The notes below the pieces were generated by a model. The model did no database searches, was not told where the DNA came from, and saw only the letters and a list, made by a program, of their open reading frames with translations. From a virus (taxonomy: Duplodnaviria > Heunggongvirae > Uroviricota > Caudoviricetes), in the IMG/VR virus record IMGVR_UViG_2563366990_000004: a stretch of 46,456 nucleotides of DNA. The stretch is one strand, 5' to 3'. This document shows positions 80 through 27,533 of this stretch, piece after piece (the stretch's first letter is position 1; the number at the start of each line of letters is the position of its first letter). Both the position numbers and the translations under genes were made by a program.

Positions 80-409
80 TCAGATTTCCGGAAGTCCGTA
101 TTTTGCCCGTGCGCGGTTACATGCTTCATTCGCGATGCCATTTTCGCCGGACATTGCGAATTCCCGGCATGTGGACGGACGGTTCTTGTAAACAGAGCAA
201 TATGCGTTTTTACCCGGAGTTCCCGCCAGAGCGACACATCGGGGATTTTTCTGACTGGTGCCGCGCATACAGCGATGAAAGGGGGATATTTGCTCAGTGA
301 GACTGACCGGAACCTTTCCGCCAGCATCGTCAGCTTCTGCCCAGTAAAAAGAGACGCGGAAAAATGCACAACAGGCACCACACGTCATGCATGGATTGGG
401 GTTATTCAT
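80..409 (-). CDS. YkgJ-family cysteine-cluster protein (UPF0153-like); probable host gene flanking the prophage
   Basis: 109-aa ORF with N-terminal [16 protein letters not shown] cysteine cluster and further conserved Cys/His as in YkgJ-type proteins; lies on the opposite side of the tRNA-fragment att core from the integrase. The overlapping + strand ORF 32..424 is treated as its shadow. Confidence 0.5.
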
Positions 410-548
410 AATTCATCGGTATAGCGATAAATCGTAAAGAGAACAATGTACCTAGTGTGTATTGAGCTAAATATACCAATTAGTATACCAAGTGTATACT
501 AAGAGCAAAAAAAGAAAGGGGCTACCATTTGGTAACCCCTTGATTGTT

Positions 549-608
549 TGGCGGAAGCGCAGAGATTCGAACTCTGGAACCCTTTCGGGTCGCCGGTTTT
601 CAAGACCG
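549..608 (-). tRNA. 3'-terminal fragment (~60 nt) of a tRNA-Ser(UGA)-like gene; prophage attachment-site core at the integrase-proximal junction
   Basis: Reverse complement reads CGGTCTTGAAAACCGGCGACCCGAAAGGGTTCCAGAGTTCGAATCTCTGCGCTTCCGCCA: anticodon stem-loop (anticodon TGA), long variable arm, T-arm (GTTCGAATC), acceptor 3' strand plus CCA. No matching D-arm or 5' acceptor strand follows; phage DNA starts at 609. Confidence 0.55.
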
Positions 609-749
609 AAGAAAAACAAATAAAAATCAGTGTAATACGTGAAGCTGCTGAAAATTTAATCAAATTTAACACCAAGAAAAATCAAGGTGTTAGGAAGTTG
701 CTCATAGCTAGTATACCAAGTATTTTTGCCAGAAAATTTTCTGTATTGC

Positions 750-1769
750 CTACTTGCTAACCACGAGCGGCAGATCCAGTGTTGGTGTGATTTTTGTTTT
801 ACGATCGTAAATCAACACCTGATTTTCTGTTTTATGCCCGCTGAAAATTTGTTTGTCGCGACTGCTGCCTTCGTAATCAGAGATCCCCTTGGCTTTTATA
901 TCGTGAAAATTGCACCCGAACGGAACGCCAACTTTTTGCTCGGCTGAGCGTTTAGCCTGATTCCACCAGTTGTTCAGCGTTTTAGCTATGACTTTCCCGC
1001 CTTTGGTTGTATTGATCACATATTCGCATGTACAGGAAGATACATTTCGGGCTAACTGGATCGCTGTACGTAATCGCGGTGACCATTCCTTGATTTGTTT
1101 GGTGCCGGTTTTGTTTTGCTCAATGTAGATCCCTTTATCCATAATATCCTGCCATTTCAACTCAAGCACATCACCGAGCCTTGCCGCACAGAGATAGGAA
1201 ATCTCCATTGCAATGCGTAACTGTGGAATTGCTTCCGCATATATCGCTGCATACTGTTCATCGGTGATGTAAACAGTGCGGGCTTTAAGAGAGAATTTTC
1301 TGACTCCTTTGCATGGGTTATTCTTCACGTATCCACGCTCATATCCCCACCCGTATACTCGACTCAGGCTTGCCAGTTCATGATTTGCCTGGGTCTTGCT
1401 CTCAAGCCCTCGTTTATCCATGAAAATTCTTACCTGCTCAGTTTTGACATTATCAGCAAGCACTTTTCCGAATACCATCAGCAACGCCTTCTGATGTTGT
1501 CGATAATCTTTTTGGGTTCGGGGGGCCAGTTCTGTAAATGCAGGGGAGTCCATAAACATGTGCCATAATTTAGCTACGGTCATTATGTTGTGGAGTTTTG
1601 CTTTTTCCAGTTCATAATTTTGCCAGACTTTAGCTACGCTGGTTTTCCGCACTCTTCCTAGCCCTATAGTTCTTGTACTTCCTTCTGGTTTCCACACGTA
1701 ACTGTAACCATTCGATCTAACCCGCGGTGGCAGTACATTATCTTTTTTATTTTTTCTTGGTCTTCCCAT
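750..1769 (-). CDS. int: Phage integrase, tyrosine recombinase (lambda-Int family)
   Basis: 339-aa ORF next to the att core; N-terminal arm-binding-like region and C-terminal catalytic-type region (…HDIKAKGISDYEGS…HKTENQVLIYDRK) ending in a conserved Tyr context; preceded by an overlapping excisionase gene. Confidence 0.88.
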   Translation of the reverse strand: MGRPRKNKKDNVLPPRVRSNGYSYVWKPEGSTRTIGLGRVRKTSVAKVWQNYELEKAKLHNIMTVAKLWHMFMDSPAFTELAPRTQKDYRQHQKALLMVFGKVLADNVKTEQVRIFMDKRGLESKTQANHELASLSRVYGWGYERGYVKNNPCKGVRKFSLKARTVYITDEQYAAIYAEAIPQLRIAMEISYLCAARLGDVLELKWQDIMDKGIYIEQNKTGTKQIKEWSPRLRTAIQLARNVSSCTCEYVINTTKGGKVIAKTLNNWWNQAKRSAEQKVGVPFGCNFHDIKAKGISDYEGSSRDKQIFSGHKTENQVLIYDRKTKITPTLDLPLVVSK

Positions 1770-1989
1770 TGTTCAGCGCCTCAAAATCGGGTTCAGCAGA
1801 AACCAGTTCAGATGTTTTTGGCATCGTTGTCAGTCCGTGTGGAATATCCCTGCGTAGAACTATTGGTTCGTTTTTAGGACCGATTACAAATGGGATGCCG
1901 TGCAGTCTTAACTGGTGTTGCTGTTTTGTGTATCGCTCGTATTTCGTGATCTCTTTAATCTCTGCTGGAGATAGAGTTAATTCGTACAT
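1747..1989 (-). CDS. xis: Excisionase-like protein (Xis)
   Basis: 80-aa basic ORF immediately upstream of and overlapping int by 23 nt on the same strand, the classic xis-int arrangement. Confidence 0.6.
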   Translation of the reverse strand: MYELTLSPAEIKEITKYERYTKQQHQLRLHGIPFVIGPKNEPIVLRRDIPHGLTTMPKTSELVSAEPDFEALNNGKTKKK

Positions 1990-2056
1990 GTGGTCACGTG
2001 CCTTTACAGCATGACCGCCGCCACTATAGCTGGTGGGCGGCGATATGGGTTGAACA

Positions 2057-4495
2057 TTAAAAATCAGCCTGACTCGGGATCAGTTTTTGCCAGATAGCTG
2101 AAACGTATTTTGCCTGATAACGGGCGTCATCAAGTGCATTATGGCGCTCACCTTCGAATGGAATAGCCGTTCTGGCATCGAAGTCTATGGCTTTCCCCAG
2201 CTCAACGATTGTGCGTACATCGCGATCGTTGTAGTAACGCCACGGGCAGGGGATCCCCTGCCGTTCGTATGAACGGCGCAAAATCGTGTTGTCGAAGTTG
2301 GCTCCATTTCCCCAGACCTGAACAAAAAATTCACCGGAGTTTTCGTCGATAAATTCCCGCAGTTGTAACAGTGCATCATCTAACGGGATTTCATCGGTCA
2401 TAATGGCAGATTGCGCTTCGCGTGATTGCTTAAGCCACCATTTAATGGTGTCCCGATCAATGACTCCGCCAGCAGTTTCCAGATCGATAGTCTTACTAAA
2501 TTCCGGTCCCATATCTCCGGTTTGCGGATCGAAAAATATTGCACCTATTGAGATGATCGGGGCATTAGGATTTTTTCCCATGGTTTCAAGGTCGATCATT
2601 AGATGGTCACACGTCCTGCTGGTGGATGTGATTTCGTGATGACCGTTCACCGCAATTAAGGGATCTGCCGCTTCGCCAGTTTCACTATCGCTGGTGTGAT
2701 GCTGATCGTTACCAGCATTCTCATTGTTCGGATGTTCAGCGCCTTCTATTTCCTCCGGATCATCTTCCTGAACTTCAGCCTGATTTTTTTCATCGAATGT
2801 TTCCTGGTATGTTGCGTCGCCCATCACCGCGCCACAGTCAGGACAGTTGCCGCCACCGCTCTGACCGCAGGCGGTGCAGACTTTTTCCTCTTCCTGTTGC
2901 GCTACTGGTTCGGATTGTTTCGTTTCTGGCTCGTCTTGTAACGCATTTTGGCTGTTTTGTTCTGCTTTCTGGTCGTTCTGTTCCGTTTCTAGCTGGTTCT
3001 GGTTCACAGAATCGCAGGTTTCAATCCCCTTAACCCATTTCGAATCATTCGGGTCGCTAATCCCTTCAACAAACTCACCACGAGAAGCGGCAAGCAATTT
3101 GTCGGCATCTGGTCGACTGATGTCTGCTGCCTCCATAATTTTATTTACTTCTTCAGCGGTAACTTTTACCTGTGACTTGTCATCCAGCGGCTGCGGGTCC
3201 TGATGATGTTCAACTGTATCCGCTGCCATTGTTTCAGCCGTTGCCTGTTCATCTGCCATTGCGCCAGATGGTTGCGGGTTTTCTTCATCATTTTTTTCTT
3301 CTTCTGTTTTGCACTCAGCAGCCAGTCCGTCGTTAATTTCTTCCAGGATATCTTTTTCCGGTGTATGCCGGGCAGCCATGAGCGTTTCAGCTGTGGGATT
3401 CTCGTGATCAGTTTCTGTCAGGTTGGCATTGATATACCCCTGAAGGCGTCCCGGGTAGTGATAAAACTCAGGGTGGGCGCTCCGGATAAGTGCAAAAATA
3501 GCTGCGCGGGAATAGTCCAGGATACCAGGGGTTGCGCGAAGTGCTGCGGACCATTCCCTGAACGGACTTTCTTTTTTCAGGACGATTTCTTTTGCGCGAC
3601 GATAAACGCTCACGGGTATTTCATAAATATTAAAATCCATCGGAAGCGTGGCTGCTGCAGCCTCCACATCCAGAGTATCGAGGGTGTGTACTAAGTCAGG
3701 ATTACGATCGGTTTTATTTCCGCCACCGGCATTTGCACCGGAAGCCGTGCGGGTGATGCGAGAAACACGATTTCCTTTCATCCACTCTTTTGTCAGCAGA
3801 CCTCGATCGGTATAGTCAGCGTCCAGGTATGCTTCGAAAAAAGCAGTCATTAACCCCAGACTGGAATTAACGGGATTAGGGAAAACTTTGTCTGTGTCGC
3901 GTACCAGTTTATGAAGGTCGCGAATCTCCAGCGGGTCGAGCAGCTTTGTGTTGTGGGAAATAGCCAGGGCAGTAACAGCCGGCAGTTCTTCAGCTCGTGC
4001 GATATGTAATGCCTGAAGTTCTTCCCGTGAAACGTGCGTTACCGGTTTTTCGCTGCCATGTTGCGCAAGCCAGCGAATGGGTAGTTCCTGACCGGAAATT
4101 GGCAGGAGCATATTATCCTCAATCTCAGCCATGTCTTCGCCATTGACGTTGGTATTGTCAGTGCTGGCTGGTTTTTCCTGAACTGAGGGGGAAGGCGCTA
4201 TAAATATCATTGTGATGCCATCTTCCCCGCCTTTTTCATAGCGGTTGCAGAATTCAGTATCAAACACGCCTTCCGGTGGAAGGTCATTCACAACGGGGAA
4301 ATGGACGCGGACGGGTTTTTTGAAATCATCAGCGTCGTAGCCTGCCTCGTCCATTGCAACAACGCACCGCGAGATTGCTACAGATAATTTCTTTTCTGTA
4401 CTCCAGTAAAAACCCCCTTTAATCCCAAAGCGTTTTCTGACCTTGTCATTTTTTGCTTCGCAATATAGCGCAAATTCTTCTTTATCAGTGCTCAT
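2057..4495 (-). CDS. Large early-region exonuclease with C-terminal DnaQ-like (DEDDh) 3'-5' exonuclease domain; central acidic low-complexity linker and CxxC…CxxC zinc ribbon
   Basis: 812-aa ORF. C-terminal 180 aa contain IDLETMG … NGANFD … HNALDDA motifs typical of DnaQ/RNase T-like exonucleases. Sits where Rac carries recE; no RecT/Bet-like annealase gene is visible nearby. Confidence 0.7.
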   Translation of the reverse strand: MSTDKEEFALYCEAKNDKVRKRFGIKGGFYWSTEKKLSVAISRCVVAMDEAGYDADDFKKPVRVHFPVVNDLPPEGVFDTEFCNRYEKGGEDGITMIFIAPSPSVQEKPASTDNTNVNGEDMAEIEDNMLLPISGQELPIRWLAQHGSEKPVTHVSREELQALHIARAEELPAVTALAISHNTKLLDPLEIRDLHKLVRDTDKVFPNPVNSSLGLMTAFFEAYLDADYTDRGLLTKEWMKGNRVSRITRTASGANAGGGNKTDRNPDLVHTLDTLDVEAAAATLPMDFNIYEIPVSVYRRAKEIVLKKESPFREWSAALRATPGILDYSRAAIFALIRSAHPEFYHYPGRLQGYINANLTETDHENPTAETLMAARHTPEKDILEEINDGLAAECKTEEEKNDEENPQPSGAMADEQATAETMAADTVEHHQDPQPLDDKSQVKVTAEEVNKIMEAADISRPDADKLLAASRGEFVEGISDPNDSKWVKGIETCDSVNQNQLETEQNDQKAEQNSQNALQDEPETKQSEPVAQQEEEKVCTACGQSGGGNCPDCGAVMGDATYQETFDEKNQAEVQEDDPEEIEGAEHPNNENAGNDQHHTSDSETGEAADPLIAVNGHHEITSTSRTCDHLMIDLETMGKNPNAPIISIGAIFFDPQTGDMGPEFSKTIDLETAGGVIDRDTIKWWLKQSREAQSAIMTDEIPLDDALLQLREFIDENSGEFFVQVWGNGANFDNTILRRSYERQGIPCPWRYYNDRDVRTIVELGKAIDFDARTAIPFEGERHNALDDARYQAKYVSAIWQKLIPSQADF

Positions 4496-18570: not shown

Positions 18571-19623
18571 ATGCTTAGTACTGTAAAAATATCCAGTTGT
18601 GAGTTAATCAACGCCGACTGCCTGGAATTTATCCGGTCGTTACCCGAAAATTCTGTTGACCTGATAGTCACGGACCCGCCGTACTTTAAAGTGAAGCCTG
18701 AGGGCTGGGATAACCAGTGGAAGGGCGACGATGATTACCTGAAGTGGCTGGACCAGTGTCTTGCGCAGTTCTGGCGGGTGCTGAAACCTGCCGGAAGTCT
18801 TTACCTGTTCTGTGGCCATCGCCTGGCATCTGACATTGAAATCATGATGCGTGAACGCTTCAGTGTGCTGAACCATATTATCTGGGCGAAGCCGTCCGGA
18901 CGCTGGAACGGGTGCAACAAGGAAAGCCTGAGGGCGTATTTCCCCGCCACAGAGCGCATTCTGTTCGCGGAACATTATCAGGGGCCGTATCGTCCGAAAG
19001 ATGCCGGGTATGAGGCGAAGGGCAGGGCACTGAAACAGCATGTGATGGCCCCGCTGATTGCTTACTTTCGTGATGCACGTGCTGCCCTGGGGATAACGGC
19101 AAAACAGATTGCTGATGCCACAGGAAAGAAAAACATGGTGTCGCACTGGTTCAGTGCCAGTCAGTGGCAGCTACCGGACGAAAGCGATTATCTGAAATTA
19201 CAGGCGCTGTTTGCCCGGGTGGCAGAAGAGAAGCATCAGCGCGGAGAACTGGAAAAGCCACATCACCAACTGGTCAGCACATACAGTGAACTGAACCGAC
19301 AGTATACGGAACTGCAGAGTGAATATAAGCATCTGCGGCGGTATTTCGGTGTGACGGCGCAGGTGCCGTACACCGATGTGTGGACGCATAAACCGGTGCA
19401 GTACTATCCCGGGAAACATCCGTGCGAAAAACCGGCAGAAATGCTGCAGCAGATAATCAGCGCGAGCAGTCGTCCGGGTGACTTGGTTGCAGATTTCTTC
19501 ATGGGGTCGGGCTCAACCGTCAAAGCAGCGCTGGCACTGGGGCGTCGTGCAACTGGTGTTGAGCTGGAGAGTGAACGTTTTTTACAGACAGTGAAGGAGA
19601 TCCGGGACGATTTTTGCAGGTGA
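18571..19623 (+). CDS. Orphan DNA methyltransferase (beta-class amino-MTase: N-terminal DPPY motif, C-terminal FxGxG SAM motif)
   Basis: 350 aa; DLIVTDPPYF near the N-terminus and DLVADFFMGSGSTVKAA near the C-terminus; no restriction endonuclease gene adjacent. Confidence 0.85.
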   Translation: MLSTVKISSCELINADCLEFIRSLPENSVDLIVTDPPYFKVKPEGWDNQWKGDDDYLKWLDQCLAQFWRVLKPAGSLYLFCGHRLASDIEIMMRERFSVLNHIIWAKPSGRWNGCNKESLRAYFPATERILFAEHYQGPYRPKDAGYEAKGRALKQHVMAPLIAYFRDARAALGITAKQIADATGKKNMVSHWFSASQWQLPDESDYLKLQALFARVAEEKHQRGELEKPHHQLVSTYSELNRQYTELQSEYKHLRRYFGVTAQVPYTDVWTHKPVQYYPGKHPCEKPAEMLQQIISASSRPGDLVADFFMGSGSTVKAALALGRRATGVELESERFLQTVKEIRDDFCR

Positions 19624-19711
19624 CAGAGGTTGAGGAAAGGTTGAAGGGAGGATCATTTGTTATTGTTGTATATAATTATTCTACCCCTTTCCTGAGTCAG
19701 GTAAATATATA

Positions 19712-20434
19712 ATGGCAGTTGTCTGTTCTGTAATTCTGGTTTGTTCCCCGATCAATATTTTTATTGAGAAAGACAAACTTTCACTTGTGCCGGGCATGGT
19801 CATTCTGGTCACCAGAAACATCAGGGAGCTTTTTCGCACTTACACAGACCGGGTTAAGGTTGCTGATATAAATCACGATATAGTCAGTCAATATCTGGAA
19901 GGTGGGCGAAGGCGGATGAGCTCCCCACAGGCATGTTTTCCGCATTATCTCACTTCTGGCATTCATCAGCCTGTACTGGCAGAGGCGTTAATTACTAATC
20001 ATGGATTTCCCAGTGCTCCTTCTGGTGATTTGTCCACGATGACAGGGCTTTCATGTCTTTCTCTGTTTGCCAACGATGAGAGCCTGTCATCATTTTTGTC
20101 AAGGTGTTTAAGCAATACAAGCGATAAAGTCAGGGCAATAATTCAGAGCGATATATCCGTAAACTGGAAGCTTGGTGTTATTGCGTTACAACTGCATATG
20201 AGCGAAAGCTTGTTAAAGAAAAAGCTTAAAGATGAAGGAAACAGCTTCAGCCGCCTGTTGCTGGAAGAGAGGATGCGGGGGGCAGTAAATATGTTATGCT
20301 TTCAATATGGACGGGGAGCGATAGTGGCAGAAAAATGCGGTTATTCAAGCCTGTCTTACTTTATATCAGTATTCCACAGGTATTATGGAGTACCTCCTGA
20401 CAAATATGTGTCTCTGCATATGGTTGACTTTTAA
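19712..20434 (+). CDS. AraC/XylS-family transcriptional regulator (cargo gene)
   Basis: 240 aa; C-terminal double-HTH region (…FSRLLLEERMRGAVNML…IVAEKCGYSSLSYFISVFHRYYGVPP); visibly AT-rich relative to flanking phage genes. Confidence 0.75.
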   Translation: MAVVCSVILVCSPINIFIEKDKLSLVPGMVILVTRNIRELFRTYTDRVKVADINHDIVSQYLEGGRRRMSSPQACFPHYLTSGIHQPVLAEALITNHGFPSAPSGDLSTMTGLSCLSLFANDESLSSFLSRCLSNTSDKVRAIIQSDISVNWKLGVIALQLHMSESLLKKKLKDEGNSFSRLLLEERMRGAVNMLCFQYGRGAIVAEKCGYSSLSYFISVFHRYYGVPPDKYVSLHMVDF

Positions 20435-21511: not shown

Positions 21512-23479
21512 ATGGCATTTAAACACTATGACGTGGTCAGGGCGGCGTCGCCGTCAGACCTTGCGGAGCGACTGACTCAAAAACTGAAGGAGGGGTGGCA
21601 GCCATTTGGCAGTCCTGTCGCCATCACGCCTTATACCCTGATGCAGGCCATTGCGGCGGAAGGTGATGTCACCACACCTGTGGTGGTGAAGCCGTCGGAT
21701 GGAGAAGGCACAGTTATCAGCGCCACCAGCGACCCGGAGTATTACTTTGTTGTGGTTCTGGCAGGGCAGTCAAACGGCATGTCGTATGGTGAAGGCCTTC
21801 CGCTGCCGGAGACATATGACCGTCCGGACCCGCGTATTAAGCAGCTGGCGCGCCGAAGTACGGTGACACCGGGAGGTGCCGCCTGTAAGTATAACGACAT
21901 TATTCCGGCGGACCATTGTCTGCATGATGTGCAGGACATGAGCCGTCTTAACCATCCGAAAGCGGACCTGTCAAAGGGGCAGTACGGAACCGTGGGGCAG
22001 GGGCTGCATATCGCCAAAAAACTGCTGCCGTTTATACCGGCGAATGCGGGCATTCTGCTGGTTCCGTGCTGCCGTGGTGCTTCGGCATTCACAACGGGTG
22101 CAGACGGCACATACAGCGAATCAGCCGGTGCATCGGAAAATTCACTGCGCTGGGGTGTGGGTAAGCCGCTGTATCAGGATTTGGTGAGCCGGACTAAAGC
22201 CGCACTGGCGAAGAACCCGAAAAACCGTCTGCTTGCGGTGGTGTGGATGCAGGGAGAAGGTGATGTGGCAGTGGGGACGCATGCGCAGCATTCAGGGCTG
22301 TTTAGTGCGATGGTGAATCAGTTCAGAACGGACCTTGCCGGTCAGGCATCACAGAGCACAGGAGGCAGCGCATCAGCGGTACCGTGGGTTTGCGGGGACA
22401 CAACGTATTTCTGGAAGCAGCGTCATGCGGAAGGGTATGCATCAGTATACGGAGGGTATAAGGGTAAGGAGTCGCAGAACATTTTCTTTGTACCGTTAAT
22501 GACGGATGAGAATGGTGCGAATGTGCAGACCAATGACCCGGCAGAAGACCCGGACCTGGAAGCCGTCGGTTATTACGGTTCAAAGTGGCGTAATGACCAG
22601 AAGACCTGGACATCTGTGGACAGGGCCAGCCATTTCAGTTCATGGGCTCGCCGTGGGATTATTTCCGACCGTCTGGCAACGGCGATTCTGGTGCATGCCG
22701 GGAGAACCGCTGAATTCATTACCGGAAAACAGCCTGATACGGTGAAGCCCACCGGACCTTCCGGTGAAGGCCCGGAGAGAGAGCCGGAAGCCCCGGTCAG
22801 TAACCGAACCCTGATGAGTCTGCTGGCGTCCGGTGAAGACCTGGCATCACAGGGCTGGCGCTATTATCACAAACCGGCGAGCGGAGACAGTGTTGATAAA
22901 AACATCGCTGAGGCTGTGGTCAGTGATGAGGGTGCCACCGGTGGTAAGGCCCTGCAACTGAACAAACCGGAAAGCCACATCTGGTTTCTGGAGCATGATG
23001 CCGCCGGGCAGGGGGCAGAGTTGCTGAAGAAAGGCGGACGTGTGAGCGTGCGGTTTAAGGTGCCGGGCGCACTGGTGCCGAATCAGTTTGCCCTGGGTAT
23101 TTACTGGCAGTTGTCGTCCCTGCCGGAGGGAGTGACGCTGTCAGAGGAAGGCAACGACATGCTGATGTCCTTCTTCCTGCAGACGGATGCGACGAACCTG
23201 AACGCGATGTACCACAAGAAGCAGAATGCGAAGCTGGATACGTTCGGGGTCTTTGATAACGGATGGCACACACTGGCTTTTGAGTTTGCCGGAAACAACA
23301 GCATTCAGGTGACGCCGGTACTGGATGAGAAACGGGGTACACCGTTCACACTGGTGAAATCTCCGGCATCAGGGGCGGCGGACAAACTGCAACTGACAGG
23401 CATATCAAAGGCGGCGACATATACGCTGCTGATTGACAGTGTGAAGGTGGAAGTGAACAACGCGGATGCCGCGGCATGA
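21512..23479 (+). CDS. nanS-p: NanS-p-type sialate O-acetylesterase (N-terminal DUF1737, SASA/SGNH esterase core)
   Basis: 655 aa; N-terminus MAFKHYDVVRAASPSDLAERLTQKLKEGWQPFG (DUF1737-like) and esterase motif VVLAGQSNGMSYG; sits between Q and the lysis genes as nanS-p does in Stx and related lambdoid phages. Confidence 0.75.
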   Translation: MAFKHYDVVRAASPSDLAERLTQKLKEGWQPFGSPVAITPYTLMQAIAAEGDVTTPVVVKPSDGEGTVISATSDPEYYFVVVLAGQSNGMSYGEGLPLPETYDRPDPRIKQLARRSTVTPGGAACKYNDIIPADHCLHDVQDMSRLNHPKADLSKGQYGTVGQGLHIAKKLLPFIPANAGILLVPCCRGASAFTTGADGTYSESAGASENSLRWGVGKPLYQDLVSRTKAALAKNPKNRLLAVVWMQGEGDVAVGTHAQHSGLFSAMVNQFRTDLAGQASQSTGGSASAVPWVCGDTTYFWKQRHAEGYASVYGGYKGKESQNIFFVPLMTDENGANVQTNDPAEDPDLEAVGYYGSKWRNDQKTWTSVDRASHFSSWARRGIISDRLATAILVHAGRTAEFITGKQPDTVKPTGPSGEGPEREPEAPVSNRTLMSLLASGEDLASQGWRYYHKPASGDSVDKNIAEAVVSDEGATGGKALQLNKPESHIWFLEHDAAGQGAELLKKGGRVSVRFKVPGALVPNQFALGIYWQLSSLPEGVTLSEEGNDMLMSFFLQTDATNLNAMYHKKQNAKLDTFGVFDNGWHTLAFEFAGNNSIQVTPVLDEKRGTPFTLVKSPASGAADKLQLTGISKAATYTLLIDSVKVEVNNADAAA

Positions 23480-23629
23480 TAAAAAAGGCCGCCAGCAATG
23501 AAGGAAAGGGATGAACTTTGTCCACTACATGAATGCTGGCGGCTGGTAAAACGACCATGATGACACCGAAGTCTGCGGTGTTTTTCTACAAAAATAAGTA
23601 AATCATGTCAACTATCACGGTGAGAAACC

Positions 23630-23812
23630 ATGACATTTCTGAACCAGTTAATGCTGTACTTCTGTACGGCGGTCTGTGTGCTGTATCTTCTTTCGGGTGG
23701 GTACAGGGCTGTGCGCGATTTCTGGCGCAGGCAGATTGATAAAAGGGCCGCAGAGAAAATCAGCGCCAGTCAGTCAGCCGGAAGCAAACCCGAAGAGCCG
23801 CTCATTCCGTAG
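23630..23812 (+). CDS. Small putative membrane protein (60 aa)
   Basis: Hydrophobic N-terminal helix (LMLYFCTAVCVLYLLSGG) then charged tail; upstream of the holin. Confidence 0.4.
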   Translation: MTFLNQLMLYFCTAVCVLYLLSGGYRAVRDFWRRQIDKRAAEKISASQSAGSKPEEPLIP

Positions 23813-23849
23813 TCACTTTCTTAACAACACCTTTCAACGAGAAAATCCT

Positions 23850-24095
23850 ATGTCAGAAATAAAATCGCTGGTCACTGCTGAAGCAGTGAAGGAAGTCCTG
23901 CGCTCTGAAGAAGTCAGAAGCGCACTGAAACAGAAACTCCGCCAGAACCTTGAGTCGCGTCTTGATGCAGAAGTGGATGCCATTCTGGATGAACTGCTGG
24001 GCGCACCGGCAGTTCCTGAGCCGGAAGGCATTGCGGGTGACGGGAGTGCTTCAGATGGCGGTGAACCCACACCCGACAGCGACATGATGATGTAA
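23850..24095 (+). CDS. Hypothetical protein (81 aa)
   Basis: ATG 23850; product [42 protein letters not shown]… with acidic C-terminus; late-operon strand. Confidence 0.5.
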
Positions 24096-24171
24096 GCATG
24101 CGCAAGGGACCATCGGTGTGTGTCGGTGGTCTTTATATTGTTGTGAGCTTCCGGATTGCGGGAGACGGGGT

Positions 24172-24387
24172 ATGTACCAGATGGAAAAAATCACAACAGG
24201 TGTGTCATACACCACGTCAGCGGTGGGAACGGGCTACTGGTTCCTGCAGTTGCTGGACAGGGTTTCCCCGTCTCAGTGGGCGGCAATAGGCGTGCTGGGG
24301 AGTCTGCTGTTTGGGCTGCTGACATACCTGACTAACCTGTATTTCAAGATTAAAGAAGACCGTCGTAAGGCGGCGCGGGGAGAGTAG
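24172..24387 (+). CDS. S: Class II holin, phage-21 S-type pinholin with dual start (Met1/Met4)
   Basis: 71 aa; [71 protein letters not shown] is close to S21 (…[52 protein letters not shown]). Confidence 0.85.
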
Positions 24388-24390
24388 ACG

Positions 24391-25548
24391 ATGAATAAAC
24401 AATACGAACTGGTTGTTAAAGGGATAAATAATTACCCGGATAAGATTACTGTTACTGTGGCACTGGAAATTGCCGGGCAGCCGTCGTTGTTGTCGCCATA
24501 TGTGGCGATTAGTCTTGACCGTACTGAAGGTGCCAAGCTGGAATTTTACGAAGCTGAGGCGAAAAAGAAGGCGAAGCAGTTTTTCATGGATATTGCTGCC
24601 GCTTTATGTGAAGGGGATGAACAGTCACGGGAAAAGCGCCTCTGTTCAGAAGAGCGGTATACCATACAAATTAACAATGCATATAACACGATACAGTCAG
24701 AAAAAGATGATATCGAATCACGCATTGAAAAACTGGAGAACAGCGTCGTTGAACTGAATAAAAAACTGTCGGTGCAGATCCCTTCCGAAGGTGAAAAAAA
24801 ACGCCGTGATGAGCAGTTCGCGGCGTTTTACGATTATTGCCGGAAAGTGATGAGCAGAAATCTCGCAGAGTGTTTCCGTATTCAAAAAAACAGAGAGCGC
24901 TCTGCAAATAGTGAGATTCTGGATAATTTTTTAAAGGGGACGCATCTCGCCAGTGATTGTTTCATTGCTCATTCTTTTGGTGGCTTTCATGAGGCCATCA
25001 AACATGATGTTGAGAGAAGTCCAGGTATCCTCTGTTCCATTCCCGTAAGCATCGAAATAGACACAAATACGATAACCGGTGAACTCGTTACCGCCGGAGT
25101 CGGTATATTCCGTCATGAGGGGAACGATGCCAAAGGTTCCTTTACAAAAATCGGGCCGTTCTTTCTGAAGGTAGATTTCAGTGACCAGGAATGGGAGTGT
25201 AACCGGCCATCCTTTGTTGTATCCGGTGATGACGGGAAAATAACTATCTCAGAAAATGGAAAAGTAACACCGCCATCGCACCAGCACTGTGAGACGCTCA
25301 TTGAATTTGCCATTGATTACCTGAAGAACAATAAAAAGCAGGGACTAATGAAGCGCATTGGTCGTTGCATGGGGTATCTGCAGGTAGCCGCTGAGATTGA
25401 AGCGCTGGTCAGTGGTGCTGATAAGGATGCAGTTGTGCGGGAGACCGTTCTTCGTGATTTCAATACTCCACCCTTTAAGACTGAGCCAGATGATTGGATC
25501 CAGCCGGGGCTGACTTATCTGAAAGGGCGGTTTGGGGCGGTTATCTGA
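24391..25548 (+). CDS. Unknown 385-aa protein inserted between holin and endolysin (no recognisable family; central coiled-coil; possible AHSFGG elbow-like motif)
   Basis: Long uninterrupted ORF starting 4 nt after the holin stop; AT-rich; no signal peptide or TM segment evident. Confidence 0.6.
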   Translation: MNKQYELVVKGINNYPDKITVTVALEIAGQPSLLSPYVAISLDRTEGAKLEFYEAEAKKKAKQFFMDIAAALCEGDEQSREKRLCSEERYTIQINNAYNTIQSEKDDIESRIEKLENSVVELNKKLSVQIPSEGEKKRRDEQFAAFYDYCRKVMSRNLAECFRIQKNRERSANSEILDNFLKGTHLASDCFIAHSFGGFHEAIKHDVERSPGILCSIPVSIEIDTNTITGELVTAGVGIFRHEGNDAKGSFTKIGPFFLKVDFSDQEWECNRPSFVVSGDDGKITISENGKVTPPSHQHCETLIEFAIDYLKNNKKQGLMKRIGRCMGYLQVAAEIEALVSGADKDAVVRETVLRDFNTPPFKTEPDDWIQPGLTYLKGRFGAVI

Positions 25549-25861
25549 ACTTAAGCGATAGTTTATTGAAGAGCCGTTTTTTTTGCAGACAGGCAAAGTT
25601 TTTATCCCATGAACAACCCGGGTGACTGAGTTCGTCATTAAACCATTTGTTAATGTTGTGCTTCAGATGCTGAAGCATCAATGGTGTTAATGTGGTGATA
25701 ATGATATCCAGTGTTTCTGTTGAAAGCATGCCGTAAGGCTCTGAGAGAATGGCCTGAGTGGTTTCGCTATTATCCGGGATAAGCGCTTTTAATTCTGATT
25801 TAACATTTTCGTTCATTATCTGCAAAAACTCTTTGCGTAAATTGTTGTCATTATTATTCAT
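25541..25861 (-). CDS. Unknown 106-aa protein, convergent with and overlapping the 3' end of the 385-aa gene
   Basis: ORF on the opposite strand within the same AT-rich insertion; starts MNNNDNNLRKEF…; 8-nt overlap of the 3' ends. Confidence 0.45.
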   Translation of the reverse strand: MNNNDNNLRKEFLQIMNENVKSELKALIPDNSETTQAILSEPYGMLSTETLDIIITTLTPLMLQHLKHNINKWFNDELSHPGCSWDKNFACLQKKRLFNKLSLKFR

Positions 25862-25986
25862 TTATAAAATCTCATTTGTTGTTACCGGGTGTGTCCTGGT
25901 GCCTGTTGATTATATTCATCGTGAGTACCGGATTATATATCTGACATATCCAGGAATAAGAGAGCTATAAATCCTGATAAATATCC

Positions 25987-26520
25987 ATGAACACCAAAAT
26001 CAAATACGGCCTGTCGGCTGCCGTTCTGGCGCTGATTGCCGCAGGTGCGCCTGCGCCTGAAATCCTCGACCAGTTTCTGGATGAAAAAGAAGGCAACCAC
26101 ACCACGGCATACCGTGATGGCGCGGGTATCTGGACCATCTGCCGGGGTGCCATCATGGTGGATGGTAAGCCTGTGATTCCTGGCATGAAGCTGTCGAAGG
26201 GGAAATGCGACCGGGTTAACGCTATCGAACGGGATAAGGCGCTGGCATGGGTGGAGAAAAACATCAGAGTGCCACTGACCGAACCCCAGAAAGCGGGTAT
26301 TGCGTCATTCTGCCCGTATAACATTGGCCCCGGTAAGTGTTTCCCGTCGACGTTTTATAAACGAATTAATGCAGGCGATCGCAGGGGAGCGTGTGAAGCG
26401 ATTCGCTGGTGGATTAAGGACGGTGGCAGAGACTGCCGTATCCGCTCAAATAATTGCTACGGTCAGGTATCCCGTCGCGACCAGGAGAGTGCGCTGGCAT
26501 GCTGGGGTATCGACAGGTAG
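25987..26520 (+). CDS. R: SAR endolysin (T4-lysozyme family with N-terminal signal-anchor-release domain)
   Basis: 177 aa; N-terminal weakly hydrophobic Gly/Ala-rich stretch (LSAAVLALIAAGAPAP) then lysozyme core resembling R21 (…GIWTICRGAIMVDGKPV…); partners a pinholin. Confidence 0.85.
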   Translation: MNTKIKYGLSAAVLALIAAGAPAPEILDQFLDEKEGNHTTAYRDGAGIWTICRGAIMVDGKPVIPGMKLSKGKCDRVNAIERDKALAWVEKNIRVPLTEPQKAGIASFCPYNIGPGKCFPSTFYKRINAGDRRGACEAIRWWIKDGGRDCRIRSNNCYGQVSRRDQESALACWGIDR

Positions 26521-26611
26521 TAGAATATTTTGCTGAAAAATGACGTTGACCAACGCGGACGGATAACACGAAATCCTGCGAACTGGCAAAACCTAAGTGA
26601 ATAAAAGTAAA

Positions 26612-26647
26612 AACCCCGTTTGTTGGCAGCAAGCGGGGTTTTGTGTT
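26612..26647 (+). terminator. Intrinsic terminator-like hairpin downstream of the endolysin
   Basis: AACCCCG … CGGGGTT stem with ~15-nt loop followed by TTTTGTGTTT. Confidence 0.35.
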
Positions 26648-26678
26648 TCCTGACTCCGGAAAAGTCAAAGGAGAAAGT

Positions 26679-26816
26679 GTGTTTGATTTTAGCAAACTGA
26701 TTCGGGAGATTCGAGTGATGGCTGAAAAATTATCCACCTGGAAGTTCATCCTTATCTGGCTGGTGTTTGTGATTATGGCCTCCGGTTATTTCATCGGTCA
26801 GATACGCTGGTGGTGA
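26679..26816 (+). CDS. Possible small membrane protein (45 aa) between endolysin and Rz
   Basis: GTG 26679 preceded by AAGGAG at 5-nt spacing; C-terminal hydrophobic helix ([20 protein letters not shown]); stop 1 nt before the Rz start. Confidence 0.3.
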
Positions 26817-26817
26817 A

Positions 26818-27285
26818 ATGAACCGCGTTCTGTGTGTGGTCATCATTGCCCTGCTGGTGGCCTGTGGTGCGCTTAGTCTGGGGCTGAATCATTACCGCGA
26901 TAACGCCATCACCTACAAAGCGCAGCGCGATAAAAAAGCCAGAGAGCTGGAGCAGGCAAACGCAACCATTACTGATATGCAGGTGCGCCAGCGTGATGTT
27001 GCTGCGCTCGATGCAAAATACTCGAGGGAATTAGCCGATGCGAGAGCTGAAAATGAAACTCTGCGTGCTGATGTTGCCGCTGGTCGTAAGCGCCTGCGGA
27101 TCAACGCCACCTGCCACGGTACCGTGCGTGAAGCCACCAGCACCTCCGGCGTGGATAATGCAACCGGCCCCCGACTGGCAGACACCGCTGAACGGGATTA
27201 TTTCATCCTCAGAGAACGGTTGATGACAATGCAGAAGCAGCTGGAAGGGGCGAAGGAATATATCCGCACTCAGTGTATTAACTAG
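26818..27285 (+). CDS. Rz: Rz i-spanin
   Basis: 155 aa; N-terminal TM then coiled-coil; close to lambda Rz (…[45 protein letters not shown]…). Confidence 0.85.
27053..27223 (+). CDS. Rz1: Rz1 o-spanin lipoprotein embedded in the +1 frame of Rz
   Basis: [56 protein letters not shown]; lipobox VVSAC and proline-rich body as in lambda Rz1. Confidence 0.8.
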
Positions 27286-27308
27286 TATTTTTGTTATCCG
27301 GAGAATGC

Positions 27309-27533
27309 ATGAAGAAATTACTGGTAACCGTAGAACCTTTTCAGGGAACAATTCCGTTCCGTATTTTGCAGCGTGGTCGTGTTCTTGTTGAAGGTTCGTT
27401 CAGTGGTAAATGTACGCAATTACACTCCCGGACCTTTCAGGTGAATGCCACGAATGAAGAGCTAACCGTTGAGTGTACGATGAATGCCGCTAAATGCCGC
27501 ATGGTATCCGCTGCATTACAGCCAGTGTGTTGA
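27309..27533 (+). CDS. Hypothetical small Cys-containing protein (74 aa) between Rz and cos
   Basis: ORF from internal Met MKKLLVTVEPFQGT…; occupies the position where lambda carries bor on the other strand, but is not Bor-like. Confidence 0.35.
   Translation: MKKLLVTVEPFQGTIPFRILQRGRVLVEGSFSGKCTQLHSRTFQVNATNEELTVECTMNAAKCRMVSAALQPVC

Follow-up and report, generated by a model that had tools for sequence, protein, structure and literature searches.

In the original P21 lysis cassette, the genes for the holin (S) and the endolysin (R) are adjacent. This study concerns a virus sequence in which they lie apart: a stretch of 46,456 nucleotides (nt), referred to here as the window (Duplodnaviria; Heunggongvirae; Uroviricota; Caudoviricetes; IMG/VR record IMGVR_UViG_2563366990_000004), in which S and R are separated by 1599 nt according to the list of its open reading frames (ORFs). 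This interval holds a plus-strand ORF of 385 amino acids (aa), related to the YdfR family, and a convergent minus-strand gene of 106 aa, termed o106. A described counterpart is YdfR (P76160, b1555) of the cryptic prophage Qin of Escherichia coli K-12, which has a homologous N domain and occupies the same holin–lysozyme slot (gene order essQ-ydfR-rrrQ), with ydfR beginning 4 nt after the stop codon of the holin gene essQ. YdfR of K-12 is 103 aa in length and consists of the domain and one helix, whereas the window protein, at 385 aa, adds a coiled coil, a read-through segment, and an E domain; in addition, Qin has no convergent partner gene, unlike the window. Residues 1-72 of K-12 YdfR were found by two-hybrid and pull-down to bind the catalytic half of RNase E as well as RNase G, and the protein copurifies with RNA (PMC13232886).

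The layout of the window (S, plus-strand gene, convergent gene of 104-106 aa, and R) is also that of orf5/orf6 in the Shiga toxin 2 (Stx2)-converting phage 86 (AB255436), and is common to prophage gene pairs of E. coli O-serogroups (e.g., WP_096096232/WP_001063217), with the plus-strand gene encoding DUF1327 and/or a coiled coil plus the E domain. The phage 86 protein differs in having 268 aa and no p210-derived segment (p210 is described below), and its orf6 product is only 45% identical to o106. Strains 88-3493 and 2014C-3051 carry an o106 that is 99% identical to that of the window, but their plus-strand genes (194 and 222 aa, respectively) are without DUF1327. A broader comparison is provided by the lambdoid morons (bor, lom, and stx) as defined by Hendrix and colleagues. 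The insert resembles these in its presence/absence polymorphism, deviating composition, and location in the late region with strong expression on induction; it is unlike them in that (i) the plus-strand gene lies within the late operon, (ii) the modularity of the cargo extends to protein domains, and (iii) the o106 promoter is putative. Phage-encoded modulators of RNase E include T4 Srd, T7 gp0.7, and phiKZ Dip. To these the YdfR family is a functional analogy only, as a phage protein that would be made in lytic growth and contact RNase E, with no similarity in sequence or fold; binding to the catalytic N-terminal half of RNase E has been reported only for K-12 YdfR. A Srd-like protein that appeared in the BFVD structure search (E-value 2.1) was set aside as noise. 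The slot and the YdfR/DUF1327 family are catalogued but not understood.

For the window, we favor at a probability of roughly 55% the reading that the S-R gap is a variable cargo slot that has received a recombinant YdfR-family gene and a separable, genuine o106 gene, which would work by the mechanism proposed in the last section.

Modules of the 385-aa ORF

The 385-aa ORF (24391-25548, plus strand; ORF list) begins at an ATG separated by 3 nt from the holin stop codon and is embedded, tightly behind the holin, in the late (pR′) operon. The initial annotation had recognized no family in the protein, which did not survive profile searches: residues 1-83 matched Pfam DUF1327 (YdfR, PF07041) with an E-value of 7.6e-34 and a score of 116.3 bits (gathering cut-off, 25), over positions 1-83 of the 93-position profile. 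The N domain was 38% identical to K-12 YdfR (E-value 1e-19), and phrog_1085 (function unknown) matched the protein from end to end (E-value 5.5e-151). The protein can be assigned to the YdfR/DUF1327 family by profile and by position, the latter being downstream of a P21-type holin and upstream of a lysozyme as in K-12 Qin and the Stx phages. It does not conform to the family in size or architecture, as the family is typified by a single domain of about 100 aa and the window protein has 385 aa and three extra modules; database members named 'YdfR family' are often 211-333 aa in length.

A module map was derived from an alignment of 18 homologues and from blastn breakpoints against seven reference loci; a search of 1.84 billion representative proteins, with 77 matches, also contributed to it. 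The map comprises: (i) module N, the DUF1327 domain (aa 1-83; 24391-24639, plus strand), with three beta strands and a long helix; (ii) module CC, a linker and coiled coil (aa 84-166; 24640-24887, plus strand), defined by the alignment and the AlphaFold helices and kept in most family members, including those that have no DUF1327; (iii) module D (aa ~167-261 in the plus frame; 24888-25174), which on the minus strand is read as the dead 3′ fragment of p210; and (iv) module E, the C-terminal domain (aa 262-385; 25175-25548, plus strand), with a predicted beta hairpin and four helices. In the AlphaFold model of the whole protein the predicted local distance difference test score (pLDDT) was 61 overall, 81-97 for residues 1-70, about 81-92 across residues 101-150, and 27-50 in module D. 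Helices were placed at residues 97-127 and 133-173, in keeping with the coiled-coil-like middle that had been noted from the translation. A Foldseek search of the PDB with the full-length model found nothing better than an E-value of 0.3.

The two halves of the ORF were traced by blastn to different cassettes. Positions 24178-25175 of the window (S, N, CC, and D) were 95-97% identical to Stx1_14040 (locus L001) and JNE131328 (L005), and positions 25175/25183-26548 (E, o106, and R) were 93-94% identical to strains 88-3493 (L004) and 2014C-3051 (L006). The E-type cassettes are without exactly 24888-25174, and in the base-level alignment the 9 nt that type II has at this point are replaced in the window by 291 nt of type I. 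The two parts meet in frame at about 25175, with almost no homology at the crossover. By these comparisons, two cassette types were joined in frame to give the 385-aa ORF, a rare recombinant whose left half comes from a type I cassette (DUF1327, coiled coil, and read-through into convergent p210) and whose right half brings the E domain and o106. Searches turned up the N-CC-D-E combination in three places only: the window, IMG/VR contig L015 (= L095; 99-100% identical), and the partial NCBI protein P0001. It was present in none of 5,426 complete E. coli genomes, in no phage record, and in 1 of 80 IMG/VR loci, the other 79 being without it.

The origin of module D was sought in the opposite strand. 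Type I cassettes have an opposite-strand ORF of ~210 aa, p210, which is present in Stx1_14040 (L001 3254-3886, minus strand) and in the distant loci L010 and L011. Over 252 nt, the last 82 codons of p210 are antisense to the end of the plus-strand ORF (L001 3254-3505, L010 4445-4696, and L011 3152-3403). The N-terminal 128 codons of p210 have no plus-strand ORF opposite them and are retained in diverged phages, tail-gene regions (L013 and L014) included. The remnant in the window consists of the last ~82 codons with the stop codon at 24931-24933, and is seen as a 61-aa minus-strand ORF (24931-25116). To this remnant belongs the only terminator-like hairpin, a weak one at 24890-24905 (−7.1 kcal/mol, z −1.1). 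A hairpin followed by a T run is found downstream of the p210 stop codon in two lineages with differing sequences, which fits p210 as an autonomous unit and is a feature that the p210 cassette shares with lambdoid morons. Family searches with the p210 protein and the products of other neighboring genes gave no match.

Codon-position differences in the overlap were analyzed in six sequences that aligned without gaps in both frames. In most pairs, L010 and L011 versus L014 being the exception, it was the third codon positions of the minus frame that differed most often, and the ratio of nonsynonymous to synonymous differences per site (pN/pS) was 0.32-0.54 in the minus frame and 0.66-1.13 in the plus frame. 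Protein identity was the higher in the minus frame in every pair. About 96 of the 385 residues are therefore best described, from sequence, as the antisense reading of a dead p210 fragment, present because recombination joined the p210-bearing left half to the E half; this agrees with the pLDDT of 27-50 in module D. The alternative of module D as a genuine domain was rejected, as (i) stand-alone 90-aa 'D' ORFs in tail-gene regions (L013 and L014) also have antisense p210 homologues, and (ii) the codon-position analysis favors the minus frame. The initial annotation had treated the 385-aa protein as one coherent novel protein, and this has to give way to a rare recombinant ORF whose middle quarter is antisense to a truncated gene. 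In intact type I cassettes, with their 252-nt overlap, antisense dual coding under selection is possible.

The p210 gene is frameshift-split in L005 of E. coli JNE131328 (1677-2059), where the Prokaryotic Genome Annotation Pipeline (PGAP) has two entries for the plus-strand gene, an incomplete DUF1327 pseudogene and an unrelated 'hypothetical protein' of 95 aa. This annotation illustrates how reference genomes misannotate the slot.

The convergent gene o106 and the E domain

The gene o106 (25541-25861, minus strand) is assigned to phrog_1853, has no Pfam family, and overlaps the 3′ end of the 385-aa ORF by 8 nt at its own 3′ end (25541-25548). Its homologues are 104-113 aa in length (128 aa in L104) and retain many invariant residues down to 39% identity. 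The third codon position varies most in nearly every pair, the exception being the near-identical L103/L104, and the uncorrected pN/pS is 0.27-0.5 in most comparisons, with synonymous sites saturated in distant pairs. A profile search of 5.8 billion proteins recovered 44 o106 clusters, all 'hypothetical' and without a Pfam domain, among which the only organisms named were E. coli and Salmonella enterica. On this pattern of substitution and its conserved length, o106 is a genuine gene under purifying selection.

The AT-rich spacer between the o106 and R start codons (25862-25986, assigned to no strand; 36% GC) is the presumed promoter and 5′ untranslated region (UTR) of o106, and contains, on the strand opposite to o106, the ribosome binding site for R. 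Upstream of the o106 ATG, TATAAT boxes are present at 47 and 70 nt, each paired with a poor −35 element; between the convergent genes no terminator was found. Of the features of a moron, the insert shows presence/absence polymorphism and a deviating composition; the candidates for a promoter of its own are these TATAAT boxes. A short palindrome or hairpin (e.g., CCAGTG..CACTGG) is located upstream of the o106 start codon in the window (25883-25901) and in L002, L008, L105, and L108, at a distance of ~45-70 nt in distant loci and with stems that differ; in the window it folds at −9.4 kcal/mol on the plus strand versus −5.1 kcal/mol on the o106 strand. This element could be an operator or part of the 5′ UTR.

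Of all the modules of the family, E is conserved most widely, and it occurs with or without N. Residues G62, R63, L68, Q69, A71, P99, K101, W107, P110, and Y114 are invariant down to 26% identity (alignment A7), within a core of the form ..GR.MG.LQ.AAEIEA....DNPPFK...W..PG..YLK.R. An AlphaFold run of the domain by itself returned the beta hairpin and four helices with a pLDDT of 75.5 and a predicted template modeling score (pTM) of 0.65. A Foldseek search of this domain against BFVD retrieved no informative relative (best E-value 0.045), and searches of PDB sequences with the E-domain and o106 profiles and with p210 yielded nothing better than an E-value of 0.12.

The pairing of E with o106 extends well beyond the window. 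An o106 homologue, convergent and 0-8 nt from the stop codon of the E gene, was detected in the distant loci L008, L105, L108, and L109 and in Salmonella loci L110-L113. The homologue is 46% identical in L008 (gene order Q, hicBA, N-CC-E, o106, an 80-aa gene, holin, lysozyme, and Rz), 43% identical in L105, and 39% identical in L108/L109, where its gene is paired with that of a 125-aa E-only protein. In L110-L113 of S. enterica, the E gene and o106 overlap by 4 nt in a decayed prophage. The distant E genes of L106 and L107 are without o106, and in 40 of the 43 E-domain loci of E. coli type that have no o106 the E gene ends 40-49 nt before R. This recurrence in distant loci, together with the separate occurrence of each gene (counts are given with the weighing of the proposal), indicates that the E–o106 association is old and recurrent but not obligatory, and that o106 is able to move independently. 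The surroundings of L110-L113 include a truncated Q, with no holin or lysozyme called; HicAB and RelB/ParE flank the pair, and a large SET-domain protein is encoded adjoining it.

The S-R slot and its surroundings

The slot is bordered upstream by S (24172-24387, plus strand, or from a GTG start codon at 24118), which encodes a P21-type class II holin (pinholin S) with the dual-start motif MYQM... Its product matched Pfam PF04971 ('Bacteriophage P21 holin S') over residues 5-67 with an E-value of 7.2e-33, and carries the label 'class II holin family protein' where near-identical loci of E. coli are annotated. The downstream border is the lysozyme gene R (25987-26520, plus strand; PF00959, E-value 3.9e-23). 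As read from the ORF translation, the N-terminus of R (GLSAAVLALIAAGAPAP) is Gly/Ala-rich, hydrophobic, and similar to a signal-anchor-release (SAR) segment, from which we infer that R behaves as a SAR endolysin. The Rz spanin gene follows (26818-27285, plus strand; PF03245), such that a class II holin, a SAR-like lysozyme, and Rz are on one strand as in P21-type lysis cassettes (PF04971, PF00959, and PF03245). The coordinates of the two-gene, ~1.6-kb insert between pinholin and SAR endolysin all hold. Its composition is AT-richer than the flanks, as had been claimed: the GC content is 43.3% for the insert, 37.4% for o106, and 36.0% for the spacer before R, compared with 54.2% for S, 55.4% for R, and 51.8% for the whole window.

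In a megablast search with 24100-26550, made to examine the distribution of the slot, 4,265 of the 5,426 complete E. coli genomes matched in S and R, as did 369 phage records, most of them from Stx-converting phages. Parts of the insert matched 895 of the 5,426 genomes; no single place covering at least 80% of the query was found in any phage record or complete E. coli genome of this set. All 80 of the E-domain loci from IMG/VR lie between S and R. Their S-to-R distances group into discrete classes that span 562-1603 nt, with the window type as the longest. Annotated examples of the slot contain (i) a single gene of 263 or 329 aa or a DUF1327 pseudogene; or (ii) a gene with a convergent partner, namely, 268 aa + 104 aa (phage 86 orf5/orf6), 169 aa + 86 aa, and 194 or 222 aa + 106 aa. 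YdfR-family genes were found only in the Q-to-lysis region. The S-R gap is, from these surveys, a standard recombination-prone cargo slot in P21-type cassettes of E. coli lambdoid (Stx-phage-like) prophages. The idea of an exchangeable cargo site is thereby borne out by the discrete length classes of the relatives, and the idea of an unusually split lysis cassette is not, since the slot is canonical for YdfR/DUF1327 (K-12 essQ-ydfR-rrrQ; all 80 IMG/VR E loci).

The slot sits here in a lambdoid prophage that is Stx-phage-like but stx-negative and has the gene order Q antiterminator, DNA methylase, AraC-type regulator, NanS-p-type esterase, DUF1378, DUF826, S, insert, R, Rz, and Nu1 terminase. 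At 18571-20434, downstream of Q and in the position of stx in Stx phages, the window encodes a 350-aa N6/N4 DNA methylase and a 240-aa AraC-family regulator. In Salmonella-type phages, a gene of 77-80 aa lies directly upstream of the holin gene (L008 5294-5536, L011 3956-4195, L105 2883-3116, and L107 3966-4205); by eye its product has a DUF1327-like pattern of three strands and then a helix with ..LDAYEQAA.., while Pfam detects none. The 300-nt gap between R and Rz contains a strong hairpin (26610-26642; 15-bp stem, −21.1 kcal/mol, z −4.1), as well as which 0 of 200 shuffled sequences folded, and after it a 57-aa ORF (26643-26816) with a hydrophobic stretch and without a Pfam match; in many Stx phages this R–Rz position is taken instead by an antirepressor gene (ant). 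An Rfam scan of 23400-27400 gave subthreshold noise only, and no tRNA genes were found in the whole window.

Proposed function and alternatives

Searches for a known function of the two proteins were negative. Scans of both against Pfam, NCBIfam, PHROGs, and PADLOC returned DUF1327 and unnamed PHROGs only, and searches by profile, and for the 385-aa protein also by structure, assigned no known function to either, in line with their first description as uncharacterized. Homology of the 385-aa protein to a structural or lysis accessory protein, a result named at the outset as one that would refute that description, was not found in the profile and fold searches. Among the defense profiles of PADLOC-DB v2, o106 had no match and the 385-aa protein matched PDC-S66 only, over the coiled coil (E-value 0.01, 13 bits). 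The Tai tail-assembly-inhibition system was considered as a case of prophage cargo with counter-defense and was discarded, as the Tai paper is silent on holin/endolysin positions and offers no link. The pair does not have the properties of a type II toxin-antitoxin system, in that the genes are convergent, no Pfam/NCBIfam toxin or antitoxin domain was detected, and the partners occur separately. A literature search on DUF1327, WP_001063217, and holin–endolysin cargo in Stx phages found no functional study.

In the mechanism that we propose, the plus-strand protein would be made late from pR′ along with the lysis proteins, the DUF1327 domain would dock on RNase E/G or RNA, the coiled coil would oligomerize the 385-aa protein, and the E domain would carry a specific activity. 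The o106 gene would be transcribed from its own promoter in the AT-rich spacer while the late operon is silent, and convergent antiterminated late transcription would shut it off after induction, because the genes abut without a terminator between them. The E domain and the o106 protein would probably act on the same process, with E the likelier antagonist since E alone is common and o106 alone is rare. In enterohemorrhagic E. coli (EHEC), combined deficiency of RNase E and G delays lysis and lowers Stx2 and phage yield (PMC8443680).

Several observations weigh against this proposal. With regard to the plus-strand protein, (i) RNase E binding is here an extrapolation from a homologue, as the N domain is merely 38% identical to K-12 YdfR, and overexpression of K-12 YdfR altered few transcripts (PMC13232886); (ii) the chimera may be misfolded or inactive, as the pLDDT of module D would allow; and (iii) TTA, CTA, and TCA codons, whose reverse complements are stop codons, account for 0 of 22 Leu/Ser codons in the p210 overlap versus 14 of 38 elsewhere (Fisher p = 6e-4; the lineages are not independent), which suggests that the plus frame is kept open by selection and that module D is perhaps not mere read-through. 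With regard to o106, (i) a scan for sigma-70 promoters with at least 9 of 12 consensus matches found none upstream of the gene; (ii) the gene is absent from 43 of 80 E-domain loci; (iii) in 3 of 10 o106 loci (L102-L104) it is alone between S and R; and (iv) an o106 of 99% identity adjoins E domains of 76-100% identity, so the two do not strictly covary. The counts in (ii) and (iii) also answer the initial question of whether the pair is always inserted together, which it is not.

The first alternative, which we regard as unlikely, is prophage defense with self-immunity. Here o106 would be a superinfection-exclusion or abortive-infection effector expressed in the lysogen and neutralized by the late E protein, and lone E genes would serve as anti-defense. 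The convergent orientation and the composition of o106, the most AT-rich, fit its own expression, and the gene moves alone in L102-L104; the E/o106 pair was retained in a decayed Salmonella prophage beside HicAB and RelB/ParE, and E alone is common and o106 alone rarer, as would be expected of an antidote and an effector. However, o106 had no PADLOC match and the 385-aa protein only one of 13 bits, leaving the initial suggestion of anti-phage defense without a match to any known system in that database; in addition, no enzymatic, membrane, or nucleic-acid-binding domain was detected, o106 stands alone in three loci, and variants of E and o106 are combined without covariation.

We give somewhat less credence to the view that the 385-aa ORF is a recombination scar, i.e., a nonfunctional by-product of an illegitimate crossover with a frame open by chance, such that only o106 and the lysis genes matter. 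The extreme rarity of the architecture (1 of 80 IMG/VR loci, no complete E. coli genome, and no phage record), the near absence of homology at the crossover, the quarter of the ORF that is antisense to a dead gene, and the low model confidence in the middle are all consistent with this view. It is opposed by the integrity of the DUF1327, coiled-coil, and E modules, each 82-100% identical to modules of widespread full-length genes, by the frame being open across the joint, and by the identical arrangement in at least two further records (L015 and P0001).

The improbable reading of the family as a lysis-timing accessory, in which a YdfR-family protein cotranslated with the pinholin adjusts the triggering of the holin, the release of the SAR endolysin, or the stability of the late mRNA while o106 antisense transcription damps R, draws on the tight coupling of the gene start to the holin stop codon in the window and K-12, the confinement of the family to the Q-to-lysis region, the terminator-less convergent transcription just upstream of R, and the lysis delay of induced EHEC deficient in RNase E and G cited above, but is countered by a protein that is free of membrane segments and not similar to antiholins, spanins, or known lysis regulators, by many functional Stx phages with quite different slot content or only ~560 nt, and by the adjacent S and R of the original P21 cassette.

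Beyond the favored reading of a variable slot with a recombinant YdfR-family gene and a separable o106, a more ambitious one can be held only tentatively and is rather doubtful in our view: the E protein and o106 may constitute a convergent two-gene prophage module, limited to lambdoid phages of Escherichia and Salmonella, in which an o106 effector expressed in the lysogen would be silenced by its late partner through transcription, and possibly through the protein, as a defense or addiction unit with self-immunity, to which a selected 252-nt YdfR-family/p210 dual coding would be added in the sister cassette.

Stx-converting and related lambdoid prophages are of medical importance, their late-region genes are massively expressed on induction, and the S-R slot is filled in a large share of E. 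coli genomes. The analysis provides a module map of this slot, shows that automatic annotation fuses genuine domains with sequence antisense to a dead gene, and finds that the E domain and o106 occur tail to tail in more than one genus. What had been a block of 'hypothetical proteins' becomes a small set of testable units, for which the published contact of YdfR with RNase E/G provides a concrete entry point.

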